Notes: a model not told the origin generated them from the sequence alone. Numbered from the whole stretch's first letter, positions 2,864-59,371 are shown. The stretch is DNA of 64,000 bases, filler included, from Collodictyon triciliatum (GCA_043381765.1; 5 parts of 5 records of this genome joined end to end with filler, not necessarily neighbours in it), one strand, 5' to 3'. Translations and numbers: made by a program.

Positions 2864-3339
2864 AGTACTCTATCCCACTTCTGACTGCACAACCCTAAGT
2901 CCACCCTAATGCAACTGAGGAGGGTACCGCAAGGCGCATCGCGAAGAGATTCAGGGCGAGCAGCAGGGTTAAATCGAATTGCGCCCTAAAGCCCTGGCTG
3001 CTTTTGTGTGTTTCCTTTCTTCCGAGAAAGAGCCTTTCGGCGCAATATCAGTTACCATTCGGTTCGGCAACAAAGGGATATAGCCGAGTGGAGATGAGGC
3101 CACAAACACATCCTCCTATAAAGTCAGCTTAACCCGCAAACCAACCGCCGACACAAACAGGTGTCAATGAAATACGGAGGAGAGAAGGAAGAAACAGGGG
3201 AAGGAGCTCGAAAAACATTGATCGAACAAAGGAAAGGCAGCGACGAAGGAAAAAATAAATAAATAACAAAAGAGAATCAAAGAAAAAGGAGCGAGGTATT
3301 CCTAACTTTTCTCGCCCTCAATCGAAAGGAATTCTTGTC

Positions 3340-3999
3340 ATGGAAATCGAAAGTTTGACGGAGGTTGAGTTGCAAAAGCTCCAGGAGATTCTAAAGGAGT
3401 TTCGCGCCCCTATTGTGAAGGGTCAAATGGAAGAGGTTAGGCCTAAGTGGAACCTACAACCTGATAGTCCCAACAAATCACGAGGAGTTTGCAGTGACTG
3501 TCCCCACGGAGATTACACATACTGTGATTACTGCGACACCAGGAGCTGCTATCAATGCGTGGAGCTGTGTAATCCGAGAGTATCAATGGCGGATTTTGAA
3601 CACGCCTGTGATATTCGAAAGAAAATCATCGACATGTTGGAGCAAGAGGAGAAAGAAAGGTCTGAAGGCGGAGATGGAAATAGAAGTGATGAAAATAGTG
3701 ATGATGACATACCCGCCAAAAGGCCAAGGGAGGGCCAAGCCGCTTATTGGAATGGATTAAGGGAAAATTGGGTAAGTTGGAATGATTATCGGCATGACAG
3801 TAGCAGTAGGGTTGAAAGACGTTCGTTTATCGAATGGATCGAAGAAAGGTTCGAAGATGAAATTCGCGAAAGGCTTCATGAGTTACAGTGGGAGGAGGAG
3901 ATGGAAATAGAGTCCAACAGGCCGTATTGGAGTCCAAAAGAATTTCTGGAGATGGCAAATTACGTCAAGATGATTCAAAAACGCCTGGAGTCAGCCTAA
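3340..3999 (+). CDS. Intronless 219-aa protein with Cys cluster (CxxC, CxxC, CxxCxxxC) and acidic/helical C-terminus; unknown function, probably mobile-element derived
   Basis: Uninterrupted ATG-TAA ORF with CSDC...CDYC...CYQCVELC, lying between retroelement fragments and intronless in an otherwise intron-rich genome. Confidence 0.5.
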   Translation: MEIESLTEVELQKLQEILKEFRAPIVKGQMEEVRPKWNLQPDSPNKSRGVCSDCPHGDYTYCDYCDTRSCYQCVELCNPRVSMADFEHACDIRKKIIDMLEQEEKERSEGGDGNRSDENSDDDIPAKRPREGQAAYWNGLRENWVSWNDYRHDSSSRVERRSFIEWIEERFEDEIRERLHELQWEEEMEIESNRPYWSPKEFLEMANYVKMIQKRLESA

Positions 4000-4259: not shown

Positions 4260-5390
4260 CTTTTCTTTCTTTGTGAATGTAATTTTTCAACAGTGTAATG
4301 AGAGAAAACAAGGCCGAGGAAACCGCCTTCGCCTCTAGGACAAAAATGAGCTGTGGATGAGACAGTGGAAACCCCCGGATTGTGTGGTTGGAGGTTTTGT
4401 GTTTTGGGTAGAAAAGAAAAAAAGAAAAAGAAGATAAAAAGAAGAAAAAAGAAAAAAAAAACAAGATAGAAAGAAAAAGAAAAAAAGATAGAAATGAGAG
4501 AAAGTGTTCTCACACGCAGACATTTCTACCCGAGGTGATTCAGCTCCAAGGCGATTTCTGGTTGTATTCGAGACTGACAGAAGAGCGGATAAAGTTGTCG
4601 GGTTAGTGAAAGTACGCACATGGCTGTTACTTCTCAAATCGACTCCGACGAGTCCTTTCAACTGTCTATCTCAGACAGGGCTTACATCCTATTTCACTCC
4701 ACAGGATGTGTCTTTTGAGGGGACAACGGGTCACTTTCCTTGCGTTTCTTGCTGGGCGACTCAGACAAAAAGCATACATCGTTGTTTCTTTGTTATTCAT
4801 GGAGGTGGCGCTTGACCGTCCCCTGGTTTCGGAACCATACGTAGCCGGCGGTGGACTTTGCTTAACCGTAGTATATGGACACGCGTTTGTGGTTTTATAA
4901 ACATACGCTCCTGCTTGCTCGGACTGCCTTTGGTGTGTGAAGTTCCAAGCTTGGTTTCGACTTCTGCTGTTTGCTCTTGCTCCTTGGTTCTCGGTGCGAC
5001 GGGCTGGGCAGGGTAAACGGACTATCTTTGGTGGGCGCTGGTTCTTGTGCTGCCTTCGCTTTGGAGTATCCTTTCGGATGAGTAACGAAGACTGCCTTGA
5101 GGCCTCCTATGTTAATCATATTCATGTCAGTTTGAATGGGTAGTTTAAGGGGGATTTTCTTTCGGGGTTTGGAGATACGCTGCTCTTGGGTCTTGCAATG
5201 TGCGGGCTTGTCCAGTATTGGTGGTGGATGGCTCGAGTGCAAAGATTCTGAAGAGGAACCGAGATTTCCTTCCATGTCATCGTCGCTGTCCCTGTATGCG
5301 CGTATCTGCTATGAGTCTTGCGGGCTCAGTTGTTGCCTGGCCTTGGCTTCCTTGACCCCGTTGCTGCTTGTCTGTTTGGCGGGTGTATTC
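4260..5390 (-). mobile_element. Second, inverted fragment of the same non-LTR element (ORF1 portion, possibly followed by a 3' UTR-like end)
   Basis: Reverse complement of 5014-5390 closely matches 1629-2003 (MEGNLGSSSES...KPRKK in both). It continues into sequence absent from copy 1. The 4284-4308 segment recurs in a TSD-flanked insertion at 24338-24376. Confidence 0.7.
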
Positions 5391-6197
5391 TAGTTTAGTT
5401 TATTGTTTTCCCATATTTTATAAGATGTTAAATGGACTCATCTTAAATCCCACTATACAAGTACTGTGATGCTTTATTTTCCCAATTCTTATTTCATAAC
5501 CCACGAATCACACAAAAAGAGGAAAAGAATCCACACCCACGAGCGATTGTTGAAAAGAAAAAAAAACCGGGGACTTTGGCCACTGCTCTAACGAGATTAT
5601 ACAACCCATCCGCCCACGCAGCCGGAAAACCAGAGGGTTTTGATTGAGGAAACTTTGGTAAAAGATATTCCATCCAGGCGGGAAAGAGCTTTATTCGGTG
5701 ATGGAACACAACCCCAACACCCAAAAATCAGCGAAGAGAGCGTAATGAATGGTATTCATTGTTCATTCCGCGAAGCCAATAAACATGAACGTCCACGTCG
5801 CTTTCTTGTCCACACAAATCGCAACCACCTACGATCGTAGACTTGATAGATTGTAAACACGAGGCGAAACCTCGATCTACCGTGCGGCACTTCTTTTATT
5901 CTCTTTTTTTCTCTACTTGAACCCCTATGCTTTGCCCACACGGAAGACAACTTCCTGTACTCCTCTTTCTTTCTTTTCAAGCTGCTTCGTTTGCACTCAC
6001 AAAAAAAAAAATTTTTTTTTTAGTCGTAATACCCTTCTGTTGATTCTTAGTTCATGTACCTTTATATCTTTCCCATTTTATTTATTCTTTATTTATTATC
6101 TATTTATCTATTTATCTATTTATTTATTTATCTATTTATTTATCTATTTATCTTTGCGAGGTGGTTTGCAACCGATTCCCACCTTTGTTTAAGAGCA

Positions 6198-12777: not shown

Positions 12778-12876
12778 NNNNNNNNNNNNNNNNNNNNNNN
12801 NNNNNNNNNNNNNNNNNNNNNTTAATTAATTAANNNNNNNNNNNNNNNNNNNNNNNNNNNNNNNNNNNNNNNNNNN
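12778..12876. other. Assembly gap with artificial TTAATTAATTAA spacer
   Basis: An identical 12-mer between N runs also occurs at 25690, 38559 and 51417; it places stop codons in all six frames. Confidence 0.9.
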
Positions 12877-13152
12877 NGAAAAAAGAAAAAAGAAAAAAGA
12901 AAAAAGAAAAAAAGAAAAAAGAAAAAAGAAAAAAAGAAAAAAGAAAAAAGAAAAAAAGAAAAAAAAGAAAAAAAAGAAAAAAAGAAAAAAAGAAGAAGAA
13001 AAAAAGAAAAAAGAAATAAGAAAAAAAGAAAAAAAGAAGAAGAAAAAAAGAAAAAAAGAAGAAGAAAAAAAGAAAAAAGAAATAAGAAAAAAAGAAAAAA
13101 AAGAAAAAAAGCTGAATATTTACTCATAAACACGGTAATGACGCCGCATCTA

Positions 13153-14172: not shown

Positions 14173-17100
14173 ATGAGCACAGCCGCAGAGTTTGCTTTCG
14201 ATGCAACGCGCACGAATCAGTGGCTTTCCATGGTTTGTGTTGAGCTTACTTGGCGAAGGGACTTGATTTTCATTGCCCGACAAATCCTACCATCTGACTG
14301 CTATTCTGTTTTTTATTTTTATTTTTTTTGTTTTATTCTATCATCGTCTTTGTGATGTCTATTCATGTTTCTATTTTTTATATTTGTTTTTACTCTATGA
14401 TTATGATTATGATTATGATTATGATTATGATTATGATTATGATTATGATTATGTTTGTTATGTTTTTTTTTTTTTATAGTTTGTTTCTGTTTTTATTTTT
14501 GTTTTTACTCTATGATTATGATTATGTTTATGTTTGTTATGTTAATTATGTTTATCTTTATTTTTACGTTTTCGTGAACGGTTGATTTCGTCTTTTTCAA
14601 TTCATTTTGCACAACAAATATGCTGAGAAGCAATAATATGGTATATGTCCAGCCGAAGCCGATAGAGCAACCCACAGTATTTTACGAATATGTGATCATA
14701 TTTAAAAACACTGCACGTATATCTGACCACGATGAAGCTGAAAAGTTGAAAGATATACGCATCGACACCCTGAAGCGAATACGTTCATGCGGGCTCCAGT
14801 TTCAGCAAATAATGCAAGATTAATAGCCACCACATTCATTATTATTTGATATTTTATTTATCTCGATGGCTCAATTTTTATGAAAGGAAATTTTCTTTGT
14901 GCATCATCATTTTGAGAGAAAATACCTCTTTTTTTTTTTTTTGGATTATGAAACTAATGGAACTATCCTGTTGAAATAGATCACGAGACGGAGATGAAAT
15001 ATTTGCTCGAATTGGCTGCGAAGAGAGCCGCTTATTGAAAGAAGCAGAGAGAATGAAGCTCATGCTACCACTCCGCCCCAAAGAGGGTGTAAGTAATTTT
15101 CAGTGGATAACCTCAAACGATATTGGAAAATGCACTTGATTTTTTTTTAAATGTTACTATACAATGAATCTACACACGTGAGCAAAACTAGACGTATGAA
15201 GTCTGATTACTCTGAATCTAATGATTGATAATAGCTTGCCTAAATTGATATTCTTCTAACTCTCTAGCTTCTTATTTGTACAAACAACCATGCATGCATA
15301 TATTTTCCCCTTAAAAAAGTATGATGACATCCCACATTGAATTAAGAATCACAATGAATGAAATGAAAGGTTATTGCGACGGGCGCAGCACCATTCGAAA
15401 TAGAAAAAAAGGGGAAATTTCTGGGTGAAAACGAAAATGACCCATCGCTTCCATTTTTTACATCGGCAAAAAGACAAGAAATTATATTGTCTATTCTATC
15501 TACGAAGCAAGCGAATGGCCAAATCCCTTTTGGTAAATATAGTCGAAAGAAATGAACAAAAATATGGCTGTAAAAATGTTTAATATACATAAATCTCCTT
15601 TTGAAATAGTATGCACCTGGTCATTTTCAAAATTTGTTATTTAAACAGCTTGTTAAAACCCAGACTATGTCCGCCAACTGAAAAACGGATACGTAGTGGA
15701 TTTTTACCCATTGCATGAAAGACCTTATCTTGAAAAATTAACGGTATTAGAACCTCCAAGTCCAAACTCAGAAAAATAAGCATTTCTGAAGACTTTTTTA
15801 TCAGTATTTTTCGTGGATTATTATCCTTTTACACTTTTAAACTCTTGGTTACATGCAGGCCGAATGGGGTGACATAAATTTGATGAAAAACTTCCGTGAA
15901 TTTCTTGAACAGCCTCTTAATGATGTGCGAAAATACTATGGAGAATATATTGGGATGTACTTTGCATGGTTAGGTAAGTAATTGTTAGTTTTCAATAAAA
16001 CCATTATACCTTGATTAGCAAGTTAAACCGCTATATTAAACAAGATTTAGAATTGACTGGATAGAAATTATTAACACAAATACAAAAAGCTCTTTTCTAA
16101 GTACAAATATTAAGAAGAGCTGTAATTTAGGTTTTTATACAAAGGCCCTTGTTCCGTTATCTTTATTGAGCATTGTGGTCTTAATTGTCCAGTATGATGC
16201 TCAGTCATCACTTTTTAATGATATTTTCAGATAGTTTCGATTGGACAATACGCCCAATAGCTTTTTCTTACATACTTTTACATCAGAATTGCAGACGAAG
16301 TTGACAATAACCTAGTCCCGTTTTACTGTTTTTTCATTTGCGTTTGGTGTGAGTGCCAACAATATCCCTTATTCTTAACGCAATCAAAAAAAAAGTGTAT
16401 CAATGGCTTCCAAATGAGTTTGTTTTGAGAAATAATGTAAAAATATCATTTTAATCAAAAAAAGAATCTCTGAATGGAATCTGTTCACCTTAATAGCAAC
16501 ATGTTTTCTTGAGCTTTGGAAGAGAAAGCAGGCCACCTTGGCATGGGATTGGGGCGCATTTGGTTACGTGGAAGAGGTGCTTTCATATCCAAGTTCCAAA
16601 ATGGGTCGACCATTAACAGATAATCAAAACAACCCTGCTTTTCTAAATAGGAAAAAATCCGACCGAACTTCAAAGGAATCGAAAGGATAAATAAAGTGAC
16701 AGGGGAAGTTGAAATTCATTACTCTTCCTTTAAACGTGCTGCAAAAGTCCTGGTGGGGGCCCCTGTCATGATTATAATGGTGAACTCTTTTAGATTACAG
16801 GCAGTTTTCTTCTAATTCGCCGCAAAGTTAAATCTACATTATGTTTCATATTTTCCTTTCGGTTTATTCAGCGCCTTTGAATAAAAAGATTCACCTATAC
16901 TATTTCCTCACTCTGTTGGCACTAATGCAGTCTATTTTAAATTTCTCAGCTAATATCTATTGTAATCGGAACAGTTGCTCTGCTCTCTTTGCGCATTACG
17001 ATGTCACAGTATTTTTTTATTTCTAATCGACGAACCAGTGTGTCAAGAATGATAGAGTTTCATTCCACTGCTGCGTGCATGTCAATATTGCTCCAATTTT

Positions 17101-20905: not shown

Positions 20906-23900
20906 TCAGGTGCTGCACTGCACAAACCCAAAGTTTGGCCCAGGTGTGGGGCCAAGTGCAAAATGCAGCACTCCTCCGTTTGATATATCAGCATGTTTCA
21001 AGAATGGCTCACAAAGCTGGACACCATTGAGAGTGACGCGTTGTACATAGACGTGAGCAGTGTCTTGGTTTTCAGTAGTAATATAGAGCAAACGTCCAGA
21101 GGAGGTTACAAAAGAAGCAGAGGCAACAGATGGACTTCCAATTGCATATTCATCAGCACCAGCGTTTGGAAAGAATCCCAGAGACGCAAACAGCAACCAG
21201 GAACTCATAGCCCCGTAGTCGTCATTGCCTGTAGTATTTTGTTGATTCATATATTTTCTTTTTTTACATACTACAGAGAATCTTTGACGAATGGGAAAGG
21301 AAAATGCAATGATAAAATATTATGAGTATCGCAGGCAATACCACATAGCATCTACATGACATACCTGGCAGACCACTAGGTGTGTTTTTATATTTGTTCG
21401 AAACTAACCATCGGCTCCAGAACTGTGTTCGGTCAGGTCTTCCCACATAATTGAAAATCCAAGGGTGGAACAAATCATGTTCGTTGCCGGCCCACTATGT
21501 TTTCAAAATTTAATATTATATGCATATGCGTCAATCAATCTCCATTCGCTGTTCTATCAATATTATTGCTTTAAATCCTCGTAAGAAAATTCAGAACTTC
21601 AACCGAAGCTCGGCTCGTTGGAATATTATGGGACAAAAGATTGCTCAGTTAAATATATATATATATATCACAATAAACTGGCAGTCCATATTTGTGCGTA
21701 AAAAGAAATCATACATAAAAGGGATTTGGGAAATAGTTCTCCTCGATAGTTGGATGAACAAGCGTGGAGTTGTACATGCACAGCTCCGTCTTGGCCAAGA
21801 ATTCATCCTTACTGGGGTACAGTTCAACAAGTCCTTTTATGTCATGAGGAACAAACCAAGAGTACTGCCGACGAAAATTTTATACAAAATTATTACGAAA
21901 TAAAAATTCAATTATACGTATTTTTAAAACCCAACCTAGCTTCATTTTTCATTTCACGAAAATCACGATATAATGAGAAGCAATACAGAGTGTAAAATTT
22001 ACATGCCAGGCGTTTCCTTCCTTATAGTATCTACTCAGTGGATTGTTTGGGTAGGTGGGACAAAAAATAGTACCATTGCGATACTTTGGGCACATAAACT
22101 GGTCATTCGGCTGCCAAATATTCTTGTAGTTTTTGCTTCGTTGGAAAAACATATCTGCATCGTCTCTAAGACCAAGTATCCCAGCAGCCTTTCCGACCAT
22201 AGCATCATCAAACGCATACCCAAGTGTTAAAGACGTTCCAATTTCTGAGCACTGAAGATTCAAGTCATAAAAATATAATTGATACTATGTGTGTTTTACT
22301 TTACGTATCTAGTATAGCGAATACCAAAGTTAAATTGATTCTGGATAAACTTTGAATCGAATAAAGGAAAAAAAAACTGATTCTGGATAATATAAACATA
22401 AATTCTGATTTTTTACCTCAACGGGGACATATCCGTAAATAAGATAATCCTGGATACAACCTCTACTATCGTTTGGTCTAGGGCCCATGGCAGAAAGCCG
22501 CATTCCTTCGTAAGCAGCACTCATGTTGAAATCTCGAAATCCCTTCAGATATGCCTCCACAATAATCGCATTAGCATGGTCTCCAAACATTGTTCCGGTA
22601 TACACTTGTGAATGAATTTTGAAAATGAATCAAATTTGGTGGCATGGCTGAAACATTACGCAACTTTTTTTTATTAAGCTTATTTAATCAACGGGAGGGA
22701 GTCTATTGATAAAATTATAGGACAAAAACTTACAGTGCGCCAGAGGCCATCTTGGAATATCTCCACCGAGTTGATGCATATTCACAAGCGAGCGAACTAC
22801 ATCTAGGCCAACTTTAGGCTGGGACAAAAGGAGCCACGGTTGAGATGAACGGAAGGTATCCCATATGCTAAGGTCAGAATAATAATGTTGACCGCCTGGA
22901 ACCTTCAGGGATGAATCAAAATAAATTCAGAAGTAATTATGATATGAAATCCAAAAATTCTCAACGATTCAAAAAAAAGCACTCATGTGAATGGGCATAA
23001 AAGGCATTATTTTGGGTCATTGAAATTATTCCATTTCATTTCCTAATTTACTTTGTGTACGGCTCTGTCAAATCCATAGTAGCTGCCGTCAAACTGATAA
23101 GTGAATAAAAATAAGTTTTTATTACTTTATTACTTATACAATATGCAGTTAAGGTATTTATTGCTCTCATACTTCATCATATTGAGTTGGCGAGGTTGAC
23201 ATTCGGTAAAGGGCTGTGTATAACTTTGCTCTTTCATTTGTATCCTGAGTCTCAAAAGTCCATAGAGATAGAATTTCAGCCCACGTGGAGGATGCACGTA
23301 ATGCAGCATCATCAAAAGAAAGCCCTCGGGATTGGTACTCTAAATTTAATTTTGCATACTCTTGAGATACAAAGCTGATTCCTACTTCTACAACAATCAT
23401 TCTGTTTCTCTCATCTGCGCTTGCTAATCCAAAATCTAAGAAAGCACCCAAGGAGCCATTGACACTTTTGCCATCTCGTTGAGAAAGGATTTGTCCATCA
23501 ACCCATACACCACTTCGAGACCAAGACTGACCAGATGTTTTTTGAATTTTTGCATAAAAGTATATCTAACAGAAGCAATTTATTGTTTTTTTCAAATAAG
23601 TGATTTTTTCAGTTTGAAAATAAAATAAAGAAACATAGGGTATCGAATGGTGCATAATTGCCATAAATAACCGTCTACATTTCTGATATTTTTTCAAAGC
23701 TTTTCTAGTTAAGGGTCGTGCAAGTAAGGATATTACTTTGATAGGCTTTGAACGACTCAGACGGCCTTCATTTAAGACGTATCCCTCAACTGCACTGTTG
23801 GTATCATCGACGTAAATCTAGGCCTCTGTGCATGCATCTGGTGTTATTGTATGGCAAAAATCAATCAATAAAATCATCGGCTTCGACGGAGGGTAAGAAT

Positions 23901-25269
23901 AACGATGATATCCAGAATGAGTTCCTAAAAGAGATAAAAGAACCATAGTTATTGATAATGCCTCACAATCCATAGAATTTCGAATTTGGAAACCGATTCG
24001 GTTTGTAGAATGCAAAGGCTAAGCTATCCATTATTACCTGTTGATGTCACTTCTGCGAAAACTCCCCAAGTTCCCAAAAAGACCGAATAGTATCCAGGCG
24101 TAGCTACCTAAATTAGTAAATAATGGTATCAGCACAGAAATGTCTTTACAGAATAACATCTAAATCATTCTCAGCTCTACCTCATCATCATGAGAAAAAA
24201 TCGACCTATATCCGTAATTTCGAATAAGCAAAGAATTCACCTAACGCAGAGGAGATAATGAGGAATTTTTCTGATATGAATAGTTAATAAACGCCACATA
24301 TCCTTCTGCTGAACTCTTTGAAAATGTGAAGCTTGATTTTTTTTTGGTTTCTTTTCAACAGTTTATTGAGAGAAAAGAAAATGTGAAGCTTGATAAACTA
24401 TAAAGGGGTGTTATGGTGATATTTGCACTATATTGTAGATGTATTCACACTGGAATAACTCAGAAAAATTATTACAGGCTGCGTAACTGCCATAACCCCG
24501 AAGTTTCCCAAGTCTGTTGCGCCTGCACCAACCAAACGAGTGTGAGAAAACGCTCTGATGTGTGTGTCCCTAGTTTTTTTTTTGTCACAAGGTTACACAC
24601 TAGAGACATGTGTTTTGATAAAGATAAAAAATTCTTACGAATTTTACTCACATATGGGTCTCATGTAATTTTAAGACAAACCATTCAAAAAACAAAAACA
24701 AACAAAATCTTTTCATCTCTCGAAAATGGGAAAGAGAGGATGAGGTGTACCTACCTATAATAGTAGCCACCAAAATGATTCCAATCAATCCAAATATTAT
24801 CCAACGCAGTATCTGGGCCAATTCGACAGGCGCCAAAGGGATGCTGAGGGCCAGGACTATTATGCCCGATTCTATTACGCAGACGAAAAGAAAAAAACAG
24901 GTGATAAAAACTACTCTTTAATATCCCCATGCATGGTTCCTAGAAAAATAAAACTATACTATATTTATTGAAGGAAAGCTTGCACATGCATAGAAATTTT
25001 CAGCAGAATGATGGATTTGAAAAGTGAACGCATGGGTGATCAATTCGATACCCGAAAGCTGCCCCTCCTGTGCCAATAAACATGTTGACATGGCACGTAT
25101 TCCCAGAGCATCGACTTGAGTATGTTTTGGATTCTTTGTATTGAAGTTCAGATTGCGTGAATGAGTCCAGACCAAGCGGAATTGAATATCCTTCCAGCAG
25201 ACAAGCAACAGCGACGAGCGAAAAACACACTGCTTGGACAAGAGCTGAAGGTCCGGCACAGTATTTCAT
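20906..25269 (-). CDS. GH92 family alpha-1,2-mannosidase with signal peptide, multi-exon
   Basis: VNMFIGTGG, PGPQHPFG..IGPDT, FSHTRLVGAG, EVATPGYY, SIWDTFR, GDIPRWP, TLGYAFDD, YKEGNAW, AGNEHD, GNDDYGAMSSW are all GH92 hallmarks. Confidence 0.93.
22332..22390 (+). mobile_element. Ultra-short insertion (CTTTGAATCGAATAAAGG-An) with 17-bp TSD
   Basis: AAATTGATTCTGGATAA (22332-48) and AAACTGATTCTGGATAA (22374-90) flank the motif at 22350-22367. Confidence 0.7.
24320..24394 (-). mobile_element. Short (39-bp) retroposed fragment with perfect 18-bp TSD
   Basis: GAAAATGTGAAGCTTGAT at 24320-37 and 24377-94. The insert on the - strand has AATAAA and an oligo-A tail, and resembles 4284-4308. Confidence 0.65.
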
Positions 25270-25315
25270 GTCCTTTGATTTCTATAAATTTTCAGGACGC
25301 CTGGAAGCGAGCAAT

Positions 25316-25432
25316 AAAACATAAAACATAAAACATAAAACATAAAACATAAAACATAAAACATAAAACATAAAACATAAAACATAAAACATAAAACATA
25401 AAACATAAAACATAAAACATAAAACATAAAAC
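25316..25432. repeat. (AAAACAT)n 7-bp tandem repeat
   Basis: Direct reading. Confidence 0.95.
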
Positions 25433-25746
25433 AAAAATGAATGAGATTAACGACTAGAGGAAAAATAGTCTTGCATTCTGCACCATTTTCATTTTTATCA
25501 TCCTCAATTCCTCTTGTTCGACTCCGAAGTAACACGAAACACAATCCGTCTGTGCCGCTTCGGATAATTTGGTTATTCAGGCGGTTTTGTCGCCAACTTT
25601 TTTTCGTGGCCTGTCACATTCCACGTGACCCGTGTCCTTTAATCCNNNNNNNNNNNNNNNNNNNNNNNNNNNNNNNNNNNNNNNNNNNNTTAATTAATTA
25701 ANNNNNNNNNNNNNNNNNNNNNNNNNNNNNNNNNNNNNNNNNNNNT

Positions 25747-25834
<88 letters not shown>

Positions 25835-26343
25835 TTTTCTTTTCTCTCTCTTTCTTTTTCCTCGAAGCCCAAAAGATATTCTCTTTGAAGTAATTGTACT
25901 AACTGCTAACTTACTTCGTTTTTAGATATTGTGATGGTCGGATGAACTGATCAAAAATATAAAACTGATTTGACTGGTCAAAAAGAAAAAATAATCAAAC
26001 ACAAAGCCCACAAAAAATAATCAAGAAAAAACAAGAAAAAAACAAGAAAAAAACAAGAAAAAACTAGAAAAAAACAAGAAAAAAACAAGAAAAAACAACA
26101 AACAAAAAAACAACAAACAAAAAAACAAGAAAACAACAAAAACAAGAAAACAACAAAAACAATAAAAACAATAAAAAACAATAAAAACAATAAAAACAAC
26201 AAAAACAACAAAAAACAAATAATGAGGTAGCTCCTAACTTAAATATTTTACAAATAATCATCGTACGATCGCACACACTCACGCACGAGCCCTGTAGGCT
26301 GCTTCACAAGGTTATATACGAAATCCCAGAGCCTCCTCCTTGC

Positions 26344-27174
26344 ATGAAGACACTCTACCGCCAGAAGACGCCGCTCCTGTCATGTCTCGCACTGACACTG
26401 GCATTTGGAGCCTGTATCCGCAGCCTCGCAGACACAATTCCAATTGACTCTGCATCACAAGTTAGACAGGAAGCTGACACAGTCGCCCTGAATCGAGTTC
26501 ATGATGATATTGAAATGGTTGATTCAGTCGCGTTTCGTCATTTACTGAATATGAGAAACAAGATGGCTCGCAAGGACGAAAACGATGATAGCGCCGATGA
26601 AAAAGAAAACGAGAAAGGACAAAAGAAAGGAAAAAATGCTCCTCGAGCAAGGAGAGGGCGGAAGAGAGGCCAAAAAGACAGAGACGAAGACGATGAACGC
26701 ATTGAAGATGGCGTGGATATTGAAGAAAATGCTGAGCAAAAAGGGGATAATCAAGAGGTAAAGGCTAAACGAAGGAAGAGAAATAAACAGGAGAATCTTG
26801 ATGGCGATGATTCAGATATTCAGAAACAAAAAGGTGTCGATAAAAACGGTGACGGTGGCCAAAATGATGAAAGACAGAAAGATAATGACACAGGGAAAAA
26901 GAATATGAAGAAAAAGGGTAGAGATGACAATGACGACGGTGCTGAAGAAAATAATCGTTCGGGTGAAAATGAAGTCTTTGATAAGGGCGGAGACGAGGAT
27001 GGAGAAGAGGATGAAGAAGAGGATAGAGACGAGGATGGAGAAGAGGATGAAGATGAGGATGGAGATGAGGATGGAAATGAGGATGGAAATGAGGATGGAA
27101 ATGAGGATGGAGATGAGGATGGAGATGATGAGGAAAAATTCGCAGACCTTTTAAAAAAGCAAGAAAAGGAAAAG
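26344..27174 (+). CDS. Acidic/charged low-complexity protein with putative signal peptide, interrupted by a sequence gap
   Basis: 277 open codons before the Ns, hydrophobic LLSCLALTLAFGACI near the N-terminus and EDG(N/D) repeats. It may end at about 27829 after the gap. Confidence 0.5.
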
Positions 27175-40820: not shown

Positions 40821-41114
40821 CACCAATCGAAAAATTTTATAACCCCTTCTTGTCGAAATAAAAAAGATGAATCAGATGATTCTGATGCCTTAATAAAACA
40901 AAGTTATCACCACACTATTTTCTATAGTTTTTACAGTATATACTATTTTTCGCCAGCCGCTCTATAATTCCGTAACGTTTACACTAATCACTTTAGCGTT
41001 GTAAAAAAAACCAAACAAAAACCAAACAAAAACCAAACAAAAACCAAACAAAAACCAAACAAAAACCAAACAAAAAACCAAAGAAAACCAAAAATAAAAA
41101 AAAACTGCGGGCTT

Positions 41115-41167
41115 AAGGTTACAACATGACCTTTGAATCGAATAAAGGAAAAAAAAAAGGTTACAGC

Positions 41168-41172
<5 letters not shown>
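41115..41172 (+). mobile_element. Ultra-short insertion (CTTTGAATCGAATAAAGG-An) with 16-bp TSD
   Basis: AAGGTTACAACATGAC (41115-30) and AAGGTTACAGCATGAC (41157-72) flank the motif at 41131-41148. Confidence 0.72.
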
Positions 41173-48981
<7,809 letters not shown>

Positions 48982-49592
48982 AAACCAAAAAATCTTACCT
49001 ACTCTTGTGTGTCTGCACGAAATAAAATCATTTTTCTCTCAAAAATAAAATAATCATCGCCAGTCCCGTTCGCAGCACACGGATGGTAGTCAAGTCAGTT
49101 GCATAGGAATCACATATTGGCAAACTCAAAACAAAACAAAACAAAAATGATTGGGCCAACGAAGCAAACACTCTGCAGAGCTCGTTGGTCGCACACCGAA
49201 CGACCGAAATCGGCGATATATTACGACAAAGACCTCACAAACCTTTTTTTCCTTGGTTGGTCGCTCATTACAAACAAAAAGAATAAATTCCAAATCCATA
49301 GTGTATGGTAATAATGTTACCATTGTATATATTTTCCTTCTTTTTTTCCGCGAAAGTGAGCAAATGGACACGTCAGAACTCGCGGAAGAAAAAACGAAAC
49401 AAAATCAAGAACTCGAAAAGAGTCAGGGTCTGTGTCTGTATATAAGAGAGGGTCTGCTGAAACTAAAGAGAAGATATGTAGGCACGAACACCACGTCATA
49501 AGGAACTCTGCCACAAGGACAAGACCGACACACCCAGCAAGAAAAGACAAGACAAGGAAAGAGAAAAGAAAAAAAGAAAAGAGGAGAGTACG

Positions 49593-50940
<1,348 letters not shown>

Positions 50941-51269
50941 GCAGCTCTCTGGTCTCTGTTCTCAAGGGAACATGGAGAAAAAAACTGTATTCCTGGAGTT
51001 GATGACGTTGCTCACACTAGCTCATTTGCTTGCATTTGGCTTGAAATAAACTTGAAAATTAATAGAAAAAAATGTGAGGCTAGAGTATGACATTAACTTT
51101 CACTTTTCTTCTTGTTAGAAGGGATTATCTACACAGAGGTGTAAACGAAATGAAAGTTTTTTTAAAATATCCTCCCGTTCAGTTTGCGCCAGATAGGGAT
51201 ATTTCAGTTTTATGGACATTTTCTTCTCTTTCACTTCTCTTTCACTTCTCACTCTCTCACTCTTTCACT

Positions 51270-51372
51270 TCTCTTTCTCTCACTCTCTCACTCTCTCACT
51301 CTCTCACTCTCTCACTCTCTCACTCTCTCACTCTCTCACTCTCTCACTCTCTCACTCTCTCACTCTCTCACT
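51270..51372. repeat. (CTCTCTCA)n tandem repeat running into a gap
   Basis: Direct reading. Confidence 0.9.
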
Positions 51373-51472
51373 NNNNNNNNNNNNNNNNNNNNNNNNNNNN
51401 NNNNNNNNNNNNNNNNTTAATTAATTAANNNNNNNNNNNNNNNNNNNNNNNNNNNNNNNNNNNNNNNNNNNN

Positions 51473-51709
51473 AACGCGAGTAGGAGAAGACACTACCGTG
51501 GAGAGGCTAGCACTGGAAAGAAATCAGTGATAGCGAGCTGGTCAGGTGGGCGTCCCAACTGGTTGATTGGTTGCGTGGGTAGCAGGGGTTGGATATGCTG
51601 TGGGAGATATCTTACGACACATTCCCACATCTCTCTTCGCTTGCGGTCAGAGTAGCGAAGAATGCGAGCGTGTTTCAGCAGACTGTTCAGGAAGCTGTAT
51701 TGCACGAGG
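51473..51709 (-). mobile_element. Third fragment of the non-LTR element (3' end of ORF2)
   Basis: Reverse complement matches 2711-2863 (LLKHARILRYSDRKRRE.WECVVRYLPQHIQPLLPTQPINQL). Confidence 0.8.
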
Positions 51710-52819
51710 TTCTAATGCATATCTTAACATATTCTTGTACGTGCTAAATGAGTCTGGTAATGAATGTTTTTTTAGATAAATAATCCTTCAAAACAGAAAC
51801 CCACAAAATCTTTATACACTCAATTATTGCAACTCGATTAACAAAGATATTTATATACATTTTTTTTTTTTTTGTTGAAGATTCCAGTGACTTTTTATAT
51901 GCATATTTTTACACCAACCCCGATTGTCCTATTGTACCCAATTTCTTGTATTTAACATTTCCTATGAGTTAAGTGGAATAACAGTTTATCTAGAAGGCAG
52001 AGTTACATAAATCCAAATTGTTTTTCTAACGTTTAGACAATAAAGATTGATTCATTACAGATTCATCGACACAAATAGGTTTTGAATATCTCATGTTTTA
52101 TTTGACTAAAGACTTAAGAGCATCAAAAGGAATGAGAAAAAAAAAGATAGTTTACTCAAGAATTCAATCACACATATCCAAGGTCTTACTCTGATGCTGT
52201 TGAAAAAGAGGAAGGTTGCCGATTATTGGTGTGAAAGTAACAGAGTGCAAGCACACTTCCTTCTTTTTTTCTTTCTTTCTATTTCTGCCCTTATTCCGTT
52301 TAAATTTCCAACCAGTTGGCAATCGACGCGAAACACTCCGACTCGATTTCTGTCGTGACCCAATTCTCCGAGCTTATTCCTGTCTAAATTTCGCCAATAA
52401 CACGACGGGGCAGAATAAAAGCCTCGCGCAACCCACAACCCCCAATCAAACAAGTATAACCCGCCAGAAGAGAAGTGATCCACGAGTGACTGCAAACGTA
52501 AAAGCGGCACATAACATGGTGCTGACACTAGGGTTGTTCTTCTCTCTTTCTAGTTGTTCTTATTCATTTCCTTCTTTTTTTTCTTCTTTTTCGCCTGGGT
52601 ATCTGCCTCTGGCCCTCCAGCTCAAATCGTAATCTCGGAATTCTTTTTCCCTCTGAGAAGACCGACTATAAAGTTGGTGGGGCTTGAAAAAAAAAGGAAA
52701 AAAAAGGAAAAAAAAGGAAAAGGAAAAGGAAAAGGAAAAGGAAAAGGAAAAGGAAAAGGAAAAGGAAAAGGAAAAGGAAAAGGAAAAGGAAAAGAAAAAA
52801 AGAAAGGATAAATCATCCT

Positions 52820-55800
52820 ATGTTCAAGAATAAATTAAACAAAGAAAAGAATCATTTACCCAGACCGAGAATCTTACTGAAAACTTGCGCAAAAACTAGA
52901 GTTCACATGGAGGCAAAAGAACCCAGCTTCATCATTACATTATACCCCTTTCTTTTGGAAACCGTAAAGTCTTGCTGCCTTCACGCTTCGGACACACTCC
53001 TTGTGCACGAAACGATGGAAAATATGCGCCGCTTGCGGTATTCTTCTCTTCTTTCCCATATTCAGGAGTCAGATGTTGGTTTCAGGCTGTTAGATTGGAT
53101 CACCCACACAGAACATACAGAAGAAGAGAGAAAAACTTCGGAATATTATGTCGCTGCCTTGCAGAGGCTGAATGAGATTATAAATGCTGCTTCTTCGTCT
53201 ACCAACACTATCGAAGCCACACTTGAAGCCACAACCGATCAGTCCGAAGACCTACTCGTTGAGTGGAAAGACCCAGGTGCTACCTCTCCGACTTTGACTC
53301 TCGGCGATGAAATGGTCGTATCTGACTCTGAGAGCTGTGAGGAGAAAGAAACTACAGATAATGTTATATGGTGCACATGTCCAGCGGGACCAAACCGCAT
53401 ACCTAATCTTATAAAGGTGGCGAAGGAATTTGAACATGACTCTATCATCGTGATACTCCCATCAGACTCGGCTGTCAGATGGCTAAGTCATGTCGACAGC
53501 AAACAAGATTATGATGGCGCCTTATTTGTCTCACAAATTGACGTAAAAATGGCGATTCTAAAAAACCCACGGAACATTTTGGCCGAACTAGCAACTATGG
53601 CACACAATTCCGAACTAGTATTGAGTGCAACCTGCCGGCAAATAAAAGCACCCATCTTTATTTTGGATGACATCCATATTCCAGGACTTTACACTCGATT
53701 CATTATGAATTGGATTTTGCGAGTGACGATGAAAGTTGAGACAAAAGCCCATCTCATACTCAACTCAGACGCGGGCGGCAAACTTCTTTCATCCTATCCA
53801 CAAATTTTACCTTTTGCAACTTGCAGAAGCATAAAGCCAGAGACATGTCAACCAGCAATCAAGTTCTCTGAGTTTCAATATCACGAGATACTTACCAACA
53901 TCGAGAAAGAGGTAACTTGGTACACCATTTCTCTCTTTATATATATATAGAAAATAATCCACATGAAAATTTAAAAACAAAATTTGAATTCGTCACTATC
54001 AAAGTTGTTTATTCAACACTTATATCAATTTTCACGTTTCTTTTTCTCTGGCGAAACTCGTCTAGTTAAGCAGCATCTCCAAATCGAAAACATATGGGAA
54101 TATACTCGTCTTCTTTCCATCGATACAATCTGCAATGACAATGATGGATAGCATACATTCCATTCAATCAATGAAAGATTATACCGCCCGCTTAGTCCAT
54201 CAATCCATGACTCATAAAAAGATCGACAAGGTAACCTCCTATGTCCTTAAGAAATAAAAATATATTAGAATTATCCTATCCTAGCCTGCAATCCTTTTCA
54301 CGTTGAACTACATATATTTCAACAATAATATATGAAATTGAATAGATTATGAAAAGTTCAAAGGAAGGACGTCATATTTTTCTTTGCACTGATGCTGCCA
54401 ACGCATTGCCTTATCTACCCAATGTTACTGATATCATCAACACTGGATTTAATGCTACAGTTGAATCTGACCCCAACTCACCGGTGCGTTATATTAAATT
54501 ACATACATTAAAATCGCATGTTCTGATTCATATACGAATGTTATGATGGCGGTATATATATTGTACTTTATCTATTTGGTGCGATTAATGACGCAATATA
54601 ATTTATGCAATAGACGACATTTGATTCTATAGTGTGCTTGAGGAGAAAGGGAACACTTTTCTAAAGTAGTATAAAAAATGTTTCTCATCTCTTCTCGAAA
54701 GCACGAATGGAGACTTTTGGTCAGATAAGGAGAAGGTACCTTCCATTCGATGACGCGATACACATCATTTTTGTGACATCATCAGTAGGACTACTTGATG
54801 ACGATGTTGAACACGGTATACAAGTCTATGTTCACCCAAATACAAGAGATTTCACTCAAAACTACATTAGGAGAGCTCGCTATGGAGTTGAATCTTTCTC
54901 AAACATACAATTATCAGAATTCACTAAATACTTTGTGTCTGATATAAAATCACAAATACCATTACCAGTTATAGTTTTTCTGATCGAATGTAAAAGAAAA
55001 GGTATACTTGATATTGGGTTAGATGTAGCAACATTCTTGTGCACGCCGCGTCCTTTCTTTCAACCCCATGCCAGACCAGACGATTCTAGAGCTACTCTCG
55101 GGATACAAGGGTCTAACAAAATACTATCTCTTGGCAATCTGTTGGCACACATGAAACTCCTATTTTCCAAATTATGTGACTCTGGCTTGAAGAAACTCTG
55201 CACTGACTTGCGAGCGGACTATCTTGTTTTACAAGAAATGGTTTCCATACGAGATTCTCTCGTTAATTTCACGTTACTGTTTGATGGAGTCGAGCAAGAA
55301 ACAATCACTGAGAATCAAAGACAAAACGGAGACATCTATACTCTGACTTTGTGTATGGCAAGAGCATTACCATGGACACTGGCAACTCTTCAAGAGGATG
55401 GAGTCTTCTACAATGCTTTACTGAAAGAAGATGCACACATTCATCACATCAAGAAACATATTAGTGAAAATGTTAGACATATTTTGGTGGTGAAGACAAT
55501 TGGAAAGACTTTTCATTGCAATACCTTGATATGCCCCTTAAACATTGATAATTTAGTAATTGAATGCATTGATAAATTGAATGAAATAAAGAGTGAAGAT
55601 GTTGGGCGTTCTACAACTCAAAATCGAGCTGATGGGAAAAAAAGAAACTACAAAGATTCTCCTTGACATTGGCTCGAATTGGGAGATGGATGATATACCG
55701 ACTTACATTTTGTACCAGATAAGTTTCAGCAAAAAAATCCGATCTGAGCTTATGAGTCGATTCAATGCAACATTTTACATGTCAATATTTGATGGGAAAT

Positions 55801-58190
55801 TGAAGTTCAAAAGTCCTGTAGAAAATAAAGCAGATGTTGAACGCTACATCTCTGGAACTGTAGGTTGCTTTAAAGAAGAGTTATCAAAGGAAAGGCCGTC
55901 TATGCTCTTACAGGGCAACCACATGATGCGATTAGGCCCCGGTGGGGTGATTGATGAAGTGCATTATCATTCGCCCTCGTGTCGCATGTGGGTTAAGCTG
56001 TTGGAGATATCTGCGACATTAAAGGGGGTTTTAGATTACCTTAGTTTTCTTTGTGAATTCGAGGTAGCAATAGATGATTTCTACGAAAACTGTTGGACAG
56101 ATAAAAATCGAAATGATGATCCGCAACAAAGAGTGTGGGAGGATGTCCAGCTCAAAAACATGCAAACAATCCCTGTTAGATTAAGCGACATTCAACATTT
56201 CGGTAAACTATCAAGAAAATTAAGTCTCGTTTCTTTAAACAAAGGAAATTACAGTGAGGTGGAAGCAAAGCTTACCTCGCCAGTACGGAGAATCAAATTA
56301 CACTGTTATTTAGACCTCAATTTGTCTGGGATTAGGGCAAGTCCAGTCCATCGAAAGGTTGAGATTTATTGGGGAACTGGAAAGCCAACGGGATTATTTC
56401 TAGTAAGCTTTTCAAGATCCGCTGACAAAAGTGCCCCCTTCCATTTTTTGTCAAACTATGATACTAAAAACTTGAAGGTAAGCAGATTTTGTAGGAACGG
56501 TAAAAAAAAAACAGCCAATACTTCAGAATACATTATATCTGCGCCTTACGAAAGATCTCTACCGGAATATTTCTTGAGAGATTTGCAATTAAAATCATTT
56601 TTTAAATCTATCTATGAAATATATGTCAAAGACACAAACCTGGATGAACAGGAGCGCATCAACACACTCATTACGAAGCTGGAGCGTGATGGCGTGATAA
56701 CGAGAGATAAAATTCTCACAAAATACATATATGGACAAAATTGGTACTCTTCATTTGATTCTGATAGTGACAACATTACCCTGAGTGTGGCTGAGCTTAA
56801 CCAAAATCTAAAAGAAGGAGAACATCCTTACAAACCTGTATTTAAGTATTGCTGGAACCTCTACATCGAATCATCGTTGTATGAAAAACTAAAATTTATG
56901 CTCCATCGTAACGAATCTATACAAAGAAACCGTATAAAAATCAAAGTCCACCTAGAACACGACAGAAAAACCAAAATAATCGAGTTTTCTTCTGCTGAAT
57001 CTCACAATATTGCCAGCATACGTCTGAAAATGCTCAAAATGCTACATGGGACGACTGTCGATTTAAAGCATCCTCATTTGGTGCGATTCTACAAATCTAA
57101 AGAGGGTGCTTCTTTCATCAAAAGTTTAAATCGTAATTACACATCATGCTGTATTTTCTTTCATTCCGAAATACGTGTCATCAAGATTTATGGGTTGAAC
57201 CATCAAGCAGATATTGCTCACATTATCGAAGAGAAAAACATCACCCTGCTTCAAGGTCTCTCTGAAATCATGGTTCGTGTGGATGACCCCTTAGCTGTTT
57301 TCTTGCAAAGAAGCGAAGGGCTTTTACTAAGATCTCTTGAGTATAGTCTGGGAAGTGGGAAAATCAGATTGGTGAATATAGACGGAGGTTATGTCCTAAC
57401 TGCCTTTGAAAATGAAGAATTAAATGCTCAGCTATCGGAAAAATTATCCATATACAGCCGCAGACTCAAATCAACTCTTTGCATCGAAGAGAATGAGCGC
57501 AAACGAAGGAAAACTTGCCCAGAAGCTGAAGCACAGATTGAGAGACCTGTCTCGGAAGAAACTGGCCATGATTGCAGTATTTGCGCCAGCCCAATTGCAT
57601 ATGGAAATATTTATAAATTGGTGGGATGTGGCCATGTATTCGACCTCAGTTGTTTAGTTCTGCAACTGGAGTACAGTGCCAAGGAAGGTTTACTACCTTG
57701 TGTTTGCTGTTATGATGGATGCGACGCATTGATATCCTATTGCGATATCAAAAGAATTCTATCTCATCGCCAGCTGCAGAAACTGACTGAAAGGGCTTTG
57801 ACTAAATACGAACTCAGTACAAACTGGCCATATTTCCATTGTAAATTGCCTGACTGTAGTGGAATTCTGCATCGCTCTTTTGATAGGCCGACACAATCAT
57901 GTATGGAATGCACCTCCCAATATTGCATGGCCTGCCTAGAGATGCACTCTCTGAATGTATCATGTGAAGGTTATGCAGCAGCCAATGGAAATGATGAAGA
58001 ATTCGAAGAATGGAAAAAGGCAACAGACTCTCGAAACTGTCCTCGGTGCACATCAGTCATTCAAAAGAACCAAGGGTGTAATCATATGACCTGCCTAGTC
58101 TGCGATACACACATGTGTTGGATCTGCATGAAAACATTCCCGTCTGCCTCAGATGTCTATACCCATATATCCAAAGACCATGCACAATAA
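52820..58190 (+). CDS. DEAH11/12-like degenerate helicase fused to RBR (RING1-IBR-RING2) E3 ubiquitin ligase; frameshift near 55600
   Basis: C-terminus has CSIC...CGHVFDLSC, CKLPDC...CMEC...CMAC and CPRC...KNQGCNHMTC..CDTHMCWIC. N-terminus has helicase-like relics IFILDDIH, GNILVFFPS and HIFLCTDAA...PNVTDIINTG. Confidence 0.8.
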
Positions 58191-59371
58191 TGAACGACAC
58201 GCACAAATACCGACTTCATGGTTTTATTATATTTTTGCTCGTTTTATTCCTCTCTTTTTCTCCTTCAATTCCTTTTATTTTTTTCTCGTCTTTTGTTTCA
58301 TTCATTTTTCTTTAAAAAATAAAAAAAAATATTAACCATGAGTGAACACAATTTGAATCGAATAAATGGGGGAAAAAACTTGAATGAAAAAGAGGAACCA
58401 ATAAATCAACTCAACTACAAACAACATGGAATTACTTCAATCCAAAACTATGATTATCTTTTTTTTTTTTTTCTGTTCGTATAAGATTTTTCTGTAGTAT
58501 CGATGCTTTCCTTGTGATGCATATCTCGCGTGAGAACTGGGACTTCCCCCAGATTTTCTTGGTCACATTAATTTGTTGTGCTGCAAGGTGCTGGCTTGAG
58601 AAGAACTGAGGGCCAATCCAGCGCCTTACAAGAAAAGCGAAGCAAACGACCCGTGTTTTCTTTCGCCGCCACAGTGTCCATGCACTAACCCAATTAAAAT
58701 GCAAGATCGGGTTATTGAGCACCTTGCATATGTTTGAGGTTGTATTTCTTTTGAATAGATGATTTTCATAATTACAAATATAAATTCCAGATTTATTTGA
58801 ACGAATTTTTCGATAAAGAACAAAATAGGAATACCTATGCGGATATAGTTGTGCTATCGGTTGTCAGTACTTCTTGTCTCGTTTGACTTCGGAGGGACTT
58901 GAGCTTTGATTGATTTGCCACAAGAGAATTTCCATCCTTAATCAAACCTTCGCACCCGACCAGGCGTGAGAATCATCCGCGCGGAGATGAATCTGACCTT
59001 GGAGAAACAATCAAACAAATAGCGAAAAATCGAAGAAAAACTAAAACAAAAACAAATAATAATAAAAAGAAAAGAAAAGACATAACCTCGCTACACTTTG
59101 AATCGAATAAAGGAAAAAAAGAAAAGAAAAGAAAAGAAAAGAAAAGAAAAGGGTTGGGCCACGAGAAGGCTCCCAAAGAGATACCTCGTGCTAAGCACAA
59201 AATGATGCTGAAGCCGAGTGTGCCTGGAATGGTATCCTTCACAGGCTTTGTAAACAAATAGCAATACTGACTCGAGCATTTTCTTGCCTCCACTGGAATT
59301 AAAACGAAGCGCAAAGAGCACCGAAAGCCGACTAATACCCTATGGCTTTGTAGCTTTCGAAAAGTAAAACA

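Follow-up and report, generated by a model that had tools for sequence, protein, structure and literature searches.

The points at which L1-type long interspersed nuclear elements (LINEs) are truncated at their 5′ ends are usually scattered. Very short insertions are on record, as the portion available to us of a review (PMC4859970) lists an Alu insertion of 6 bp plus 40 A in SERPINC1 as the 'Shortest Alu insertion' and ascribes short L1 insertions to host factors rather than to poor processivity of the reverse transcriptase (RT). In 'stringent-type' pairs of LINEs and short interspersed nuclear elements (SINEs), a common 3′ tail is recognised by the LINE protein, according to the accessible parts of PMC4176376 and PMC5135761; and Platy-1, of ~100 bp, is called the shortest primate SINE in the section consulted of PMC4864456. 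Here we describe a set of 18-nt units followed by oligo(A), dispersed in a 64-kb stretch of DNA from Collodictyon triciliatum (GCA_043381765.1; hereafter the window), which consists of five unrelated contigs of ~12.76 kb each that were joined artificially. A preliminary description of this DNA had proposed that the units may form an undescribed, ultra-short SINE-like family. The observation is real and non-random and a parent LINE was identified, with the result that the units are read as stumps of LINE tails in which one 5′ end is strongly favoured; we consider it probable that they were inserted from the 3′ terminus of a poly(A)-tailed, L1-like LINE with extreme 5′ truncation.

When compared with the described systems, the units were found to be closest to 5′-truncated insertions of L1-type LINEs (apurinic/apyrimidinic-type endonuclease [APE], poly(A)-tailed), with which they share an A-tail, target-site duplications (TSDs) of 15-17 bp, apparently A/T-rich targets, and 3′-end identity to an element whose relatives carry Exo_endo_phos, RVT_1 and zf-RVT domains. 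They differ from such insertions in that they comprise 18-33 nt only, their starts are tightly clustered, and the micro-copies (6-7) outnumber the longer LINE fragments (two) in the window. The SERPINC1 Alu, as presented in the available text of PMC4859970, is similar in that target-primed reverse transcription can leave few templated bases and a tail; however, the human disease-allele truncations given there are isolated, whereas the present tiny unit is found repeatedly with a common start. The resemblance to SINEs and stringent-type pairs is that a short stretch from the LINE terminus is mobilised in the absence of the LINE body and that a second variant of the 3′ untranslated region (UTR), described below, keeps a related terminus, as would be expected if the tail matters for recognition. 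Unlike SINEs, the unit lacks a promoter-bearing head or body and is far shorter; no SINE head (RNA polymerase III promoter; tRNA-, 7SL- or 5S-derived) is present in the 18 nt. Unlike stringent-type tails, it has no stable stem-loop, and its tail is poly(A) rather than a short repeat. In open-access full text, we found nothing comparable to an ultra-short retroposon or to LINE stumps of ~18 nt that recur with one constant start, and the 16-mer TTGAATCGAATAAAGG was not found there.

The 18-mer CTTTGAATCGAATAAAGG was detected as an exact match at 22350 (+), 41131 (+), 41752-41769 (−) and 59096 (+), and with two mismatches at 45873-45890 (−) and 58351-58368 (+). The six copies on both strands that the preliminary description had listed were recovered, with the four exact sites at the positions given there and the two variant sites displaced by one base. 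At up to two mismatches 0.01 matches were expected, and six were reached in 0 of 100 shuffles. Allowing three mismatches (0.20 expected) added a possible seventh, degenerate copy at 31856-31873 (−), which has two of its three mismatches at the CpG and is followed by GGAGGAAAA. The 18-mer contains AATAAA, 2 nt from the tail.

Local alignment of the copy flanks revealed TSDs of variable length at four of the six copies, three of them with the single mismatch that had been reported and the fourth exact. The first micro-copy (22332-22390, +) consists of a TSD at 22332-22348 (AAATTGATTCTGGATAA), the 18-mer at 22350-22367, A9 at 22368-22376 and the second TSD copy at 22374-22390 (AAACTGATTCTGGATAA; 17 bp, one mismatch), with a single A at 22349 that could be base −19 of the LINE. 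In the second (41115-41172, +), the TSD at 41115-41130 (AAGGTTACAACATGAC) directly abuts the 18-mer (41131-41148), and A10 (41149-41158) precedes the repeat at 41157-41172 (AAGGTTACAGCATGAC; 16 bp, one mismatch). An older micro-copy on the minus strand (45849-45905) has a variant 18-mer with two changes (45873-45890) and the tail GAAAAAAAT (45864-45872) between TSDs of 15 bp with one mismatch (45891-45905 and 45849-45863); a CpG is the site of one of the two motif changes and of the TSD mismatch. The fourth (59064-59132, +) lies within a (GAAAA)n microsatellite, where an exact 17-bp TSD (59064-59080 and 59116-59132) encloses a 33-nt LINE tail composed of UTR sequence at 59081-59095 (CATAACCTCGCTACA) and the 18-mer at 59096-59113, followed by an A-tail. 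The tails of these four copies are A7-A10, while one further copy ends in GGGGA6 and one is without a tail. The exact copy at 41752-41769 (−) has neither A-tail nor TSD, and its upstream bases are unlike the LINE UTR; the variant copy at 58351-58378 (+), with two changes in its 18-mer and followed by GGGGAAAAAA, has no clear TSD by flank alignment, and the ACA just upstream equals LINE bases −21 to −19. Several differences in the old motif copies (45873-45890 and 31856-31873) and in one TSD (45891-45905 / 45849-45863) fall at CpG as CG to CA, TG or TA, which hints at CpG hypermutability, and hence possibly cytosine methylation, in the source organism.

A control was performed in which A-runs of at least six residues were scanned for an 11-mer repeated, at up to one mismatch, within 150 bp upstream. 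The window contains 392 such A-runs; the repeat was found directly after the tail at five, and three of these bear the motif. Eight control scans with the downstream probe slid by 20-63 bp gave only 0-2 matches each, and thus the TSDs are tied to the motif tails. The combination of an A-tail with a variable-length TSD, which had been read as the signature of target-primed reverse transcription, was present at four of the six copies. The flanks of the insertion sites (tt|AAAT, tt|AAGG, at|AAAAAG and cc|ACAG) are compatible with an APE-type nick, for four sites at which the boundary between tail and TSD is ambiguous.

A longer parent element that ends in the motif was found. An exact scan of metagenome contigs with the 18-mer returned 35 stretches, of which 34 were unrelated chance contexts and one, the contig L008 (1157 bp), was informative. 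The minus strand of L008 (L008rc) carries CATAACCTCGCTACA followed by the 18-mer and A10; its frames encode the C-terminal ~300 residues of open reading frame (ORF) 2, with one frameshift and a stop at L008 207-205, and the motif is the final 18 nt of a 3′ UTR of ~93 nt. Three regions of the window matched this contig: (i) 2037-2863, at 93.5% identity to L008rc 63-889; (ii) 51713-51473, at 97.9% identity to L008rc 733-973; and (iii) 59081-59128, at 95.8% identity to L008rc 1014-1059. The first is a 5′-truncated copy of the parent LINE (2037-2863, +) that covers the C-terminal region of ORF2 with a Pfam zf-RVT match at 2140-2733 (E 1.2e-7) and whose 3′ UTR diverges after the match to L008rc; the second is a 241-bp fragment (51473-51713, −) with its 3′ end cut by the contig end and its 5′ end 314 nt from the LINE terminus. 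Relics of LINEs, which had been claimed for this window, are therefore present.

An exhaustive HMMER search was executed with the first 202 residues of the L008 ORF2 tail as query. It returned 14 proteins, including eight short pieces at 59-98% identity, which apparently belong to the same family as the L008 LINE; two other short proteins at 25-30%; and four full-length relatives of 1226-1275 aa, which aligned near their C-termini at 29-38% identity. Exo_endo_phos and RVT_1 are present in every one of the four full-length relatives, and zf-RVT in three of them. Judging from these sequences, the element is an uncharacterised L1-like, poly(A)-tailed LINE of which the putative micro-retroposon is the extreme 3′ end. 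The LINE may be autonomous by analogy with its distant full-length relatives, the C-terminal part of ORF2 being the part seen here. The ORF2 tail had no match in a word-index protein search, and viral contigs scanned with the LINE protein contained no relatives. The 18-mer matched the viral contigs once, in a chance context, and a 19-mer including the tail had 24 matches in prokaryote genome contigs and 4 in viral contigs, all of them in chance contexts.

The preferred reading would work as follows. The LINE enzyme (an ORF2 protein of the type with APE endonuclease, RT and zf-RVT) would nick A/T-rich DNA and prime on the poly(A) tail of the RNA; just the last ~18-33 nt of the LINE's own 3′ UTR would be copied, and the cDNA would then be joined to the other side of the staggered break to generate the 15-17-bp TSDs. 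That the copies are LINE tails 5′-truncated by target-primed reverse transcription is indicated by the copy at 59096, because it carries 15 further LINE bases (59081-59095), identical to the UTR and inside the TSD, as a 33-nt truncation product. Other tiny retrocopies are found in the same 64 kb. At 24320-24393 (−), exact 17-bp TSDs (TCAAGCTTCACATTTTC) enclose a 31-nt unit plus A9 that has AATAAA 16 nt upstream of its tail; the unit is single-copy in the window and has the appearance of a 3′ end, either of an mRNA or of a different LINE. It resembles a processed pseudogene or trans-mobilised mRNA 3′ end and shares its TSD style with the 18-mer copies, although the latter differ in being derived from the LINE's own RNA and not from host mRNA. 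Since further units of 31 nt and ~52 nt occur alongside the 18-mer copies, very short cDNAs seem to be general in this genome. The ~52-nt unit (plus A13, near 14463-14541, −) and a unit of ~12 nt plus A8 at 48010-48040 (−) are candidates with short direct repeats, in low-complexity sequence that makes them uncertain.

The make-up of the window bears on whether the motif could instead be a sequencing adapter, linker or assembly artefact. The window is a concatenation whose joins have the form N44-TTAATTAATTAA-N44 (12778-12877, 25646-25745, 38515-38614 and 51373-51472), and because the joins are artificial, distances between features on different contigs mean nothing. The contig ends are mostly within microsatellites. 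The motif, however, is far from these joins; the TSDs around it are specific to each locus, its old copies have undergone decay of the CpG type, and it recurs in an independent metagenome contig as the end of a LINE. An adapter or linker match, raised in the preliminary description as something that would refute the family, was accordingly rejected, and an artefact of any of these kinds is extremely unlikely. The same evidence weighs on the idea that the 18-mer is a functional rather than mobile host cis-element, such as a polyadenylation or regulatory motif. The AATAAA within it would suit such a role, as would the location of the copy at 58351, which lies ~160 nt past the stop of an ORF (55590-58190) on the same strand. 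Yet the AATAAA is just 2 nt from the tail, four copies have TSDs and A-tails, the copies occur on both strands in unrelated contexts, the old ones have decayed at CpG, and the motif is a LINE terminus. We regard a host element as very improbable.

The 5′ ends observed in the window are −18/−19 (three copies), −33, −314 and about −1010 relative to the LINE terminus. All three of the TSD-bounded copies outside repetitive sequence start at −18/−19, and the microsatellite copy at 59096 starts at −33. At 22350, 41131 and 45873 the TSD stops immediately before the C at −18 or at most one base short of it, and the bases upstream of −18 are unlike the LINE 3′ UTR, except possibly the A at 22349; the claim that the copies start at essentially one base is thus upheld. 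Starts in the range −18 to −21 are likewise seen in the two TSD-less copies and the possible seventh, whose upstream bases in common with the UTR are ACA (−21 to −19) at 58351, none at 41752 and one A at 31856. No shorter TSD-bounded tail copies were found in scans of the window.

These ends could also be accounted for by a LINE of very low processivity, or one under heavy restriction, that is truncated at random at its 5′ end in the ordinary way, with the common endpoint a coincidence of small sample size. The preliminary description had noted that a continuum of 5′ ends into a LINE 3′ UTR would point to such truncation, and this was seen in part: the copies at 59081-59113, 51473-51713 and 2037-2863 extend into the LINE to −33, −314 and about −1010, and the tiny retrocopies of 31 and ~52 nt suggest short cDNAs to be general, but the cluster at −18 remains. 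Under uniform truncation, the probability that three of four TSD-bounded copies share one start is 0.004 (30 nt), 0.0016 (50 nt) or 0.0005 (93 nt), and the beginnings of the TSD-less and possible seventh copies at −18 to −21 are likewise not what random truncation would give. We therefore consider chance an improbable source of the cluster and infer that the preference for 5′ ends at −18 (to −21) stems from some property of the template ribonucleoprotein (RNP).

A small hairpin in the unit, CTTTG/TAAAG, had been suggested to stop the RT. It can be drawn but is not stable, as its minimum free energy is 0 kcal/mol for the unit plus tail and −0.3 kcal/mol with 15 upstream nt, no better than shuffles (z +0.7). 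The hairpin as an RT stop was ruled out on this energy and is not the cause of the boundary. The fold of a 191-nt UTR segment was similarly unremarkable (z −0.33), and neither the unit nor the UTR fold has the stable 3′ stem-loop of stringent-type tails. Rfam identified no family at the gathering threshold in the window nor at E ≤ 0.1 in L008, and no tRNA-like gene was found in L008; among known families, no ribozyme or tRNA-like cleavage signal was thus seen. The 5′ junctions of the micro-copies share no common microhomology.

Two options may be considered for how the boundary would arise. The template RNA may often have its 5′ end at −18 to −21, owing to cleavage, with a potential site after the CA at −19, or to decay down to a protein-protected 3′ footprint; alternatively, synthesis may be halted by the enzyme or a bound protein acting as a boundary immediately 5′ of the last 18 nt. 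The first option, in which 3′ fragments serve as templates, would fit the ascription of short L1 insertions to host factors in the portion of PMC4859970 cited above. A more specific form of it, which we put forward tentatively and hold to be possible rather than probable, is that the terminal 18 nt plus poly(A) make up a discrete functional LINE module held and protected by the ORF2 protein. The micro-copies would then arise by run-off on 3′ fragments that begin at −18 to −21, a 5′ end set either by decay to the footprint or by endonucleolytic cleavage (e.g., slicing, or a cut following the CA at −19).

The parent LINE appears to have a second form of 3′ UTR, which is informative for the origin of the 18-mer. 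The LINE copy at 2037-2863 has a differing, barely alignable 3′ UTR, and ~370 nt downstream is CTCGAAAAACATTGATCGAACAAAGG (3207-3232, +) followed by an A-rich tract. This possible terminus agrees with the LINE tail at 21 of 27 aligned columns (one a gap), and its similarity extends across the −18 boundary. Equally good scores were reached by 18 of 2000 shuffles of the region and 13 of 2000 of the query (p about 0.007-0.009). Because the similarity crosses −18, the 18-mer would belong to the UTR, and the comparison suggests that the terminus is conserved as part of the UTR between otherwise differing variants.

This comparison bears directly on the alternative that the units are a separate, ultra-short non-autonomous retroposon, in which an ~18-nt oligoadenylated RNA with its own source gene would be copied to its 5′ end by the LINE enzyme, and LINE copies ending in the 18-mer would be chimeras or captures. 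The identical start in three of the four TSD-bounded copies is the outcome expected of run-off if the template were a short RNA of defined length, and the excess of micro-copies (6-7) over longer LINE fragments (two) in the window points the same way. Against this, the junction between UTR and 18-mer was seen twice independently (in L008 and at 59096), the second UTR variant remains similar on both sides of −18, 18 nt are too short for an RNA polymerase III promoter, the Rfam and tRNA searches described above gave no family, and no candidate master locus was seen. An independent SINE-like family, as first proposed, is unlikely on these grounds, given that the 18-mer plus poly(A) coincides with the terminal 18 nt of the L1-like LINE 3′ UTR in L008.

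Several points weigh against our interpretation of the units as LINE tail stumps with a set 5′ end. The LINE 3′ termini known to carry the 18-mer are two (L008 and the site at 59096), and L008 is metagenomic and not from this assembly. The endpoint distribution is drawn from 6-7 copies in five contigs, which is very few events. The exact 18-mer at 41752 (−), without A-tail or TSD, is not simply explained by target-primed reverse transcription; the copy at 58351 has no clear TSD; and the TSD of the copy at 59096 could be fortuitous, as it is in a microsatellite. The second UTR variant resembles the LINE tail only modestly, and the LINE copy to which it belongs (2037-~3235) yielded no TSD. No boundary-setting structure, ribozyme or tRNA-like element was found by the folds, Rfam or tRNA search, and the mechanism of the boundary is one that we only infer.

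The DNA surrounding these insertions is eukaryotic, with ~35% G+C, abundant microsatellites and genes with introns. Near the LINE copy at 2037-2863 is an inverted pair of a 393-bp repeat (1628-2018, + and 4999-5391, −; 90% identity), one member of which is just upstream of the LINE; its ORFs have no Pfam match. Directly after the A-rich end of this LINE copy is an ORF of 246 aa (3259-3999, +) with a Cys-rich stretch and no Pfam match, in a region of higher G+C (0.46). The ORF at 31352-31933 (+) has similarity to AAA_16 / NACHT-type NTPases below the Pfam cut-offs, and the possible seventh motif copy is antisense within its end. The regions 46623-47683 (+) and 50081-50281 (+) contain exons of a PEX6-like AAA ATPase, separated by AT-rich introns of ~130-230 nt, one of which contains a (TTCT)24 array, and, further along, an ARF-like GTPase exon. 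The PEX6-like exon at 46623-46850 (76 aa) has 97% identity to a transcriptome protein; its best named matches are from a scorpion (83%) and a bdelloid rotifer (72%). Upstream of the copy at 58351 are three consecutive long ORFs of 420, 333 and 866 aa (52688-58190, +). The third, of RBR type (55590-58190), has RING/IBR domains and a weak KH_DEAH11 match; it had no relative in a word-index protein search, and its protein-atlas neighbours were mostly fungal.

If the clustering of 5′ ends were to fail in a larger set, the units would be ordinary very short LINE stumps, which would still be useful for repeat annotation, since units of 27 bp, which may be frequent (6-7 per ~63 kb), would escape masking with long consensus sequences. 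If the clustering held genome-wide, the insertions would show naturally at which of the last 20 nt reverse transcription stops or the template itself begins, and would hint at the use of a short terminal sequence, besides the tail, by an L1-like poly(A) element. Such a result would bear on how 'relaxed' LINEs choose their RNA, an open question posed in the accessible part of PMC5135761, and could define a minimal retrotransposition cassette. Should the terminal 18 nt prove to be a module held by the ORF2 protein, the genome would record the natural footprint of a LINE RNP, and 18 nt plus A(n) would be the smallest known self-sufficient template for target-primed reverse transcription.

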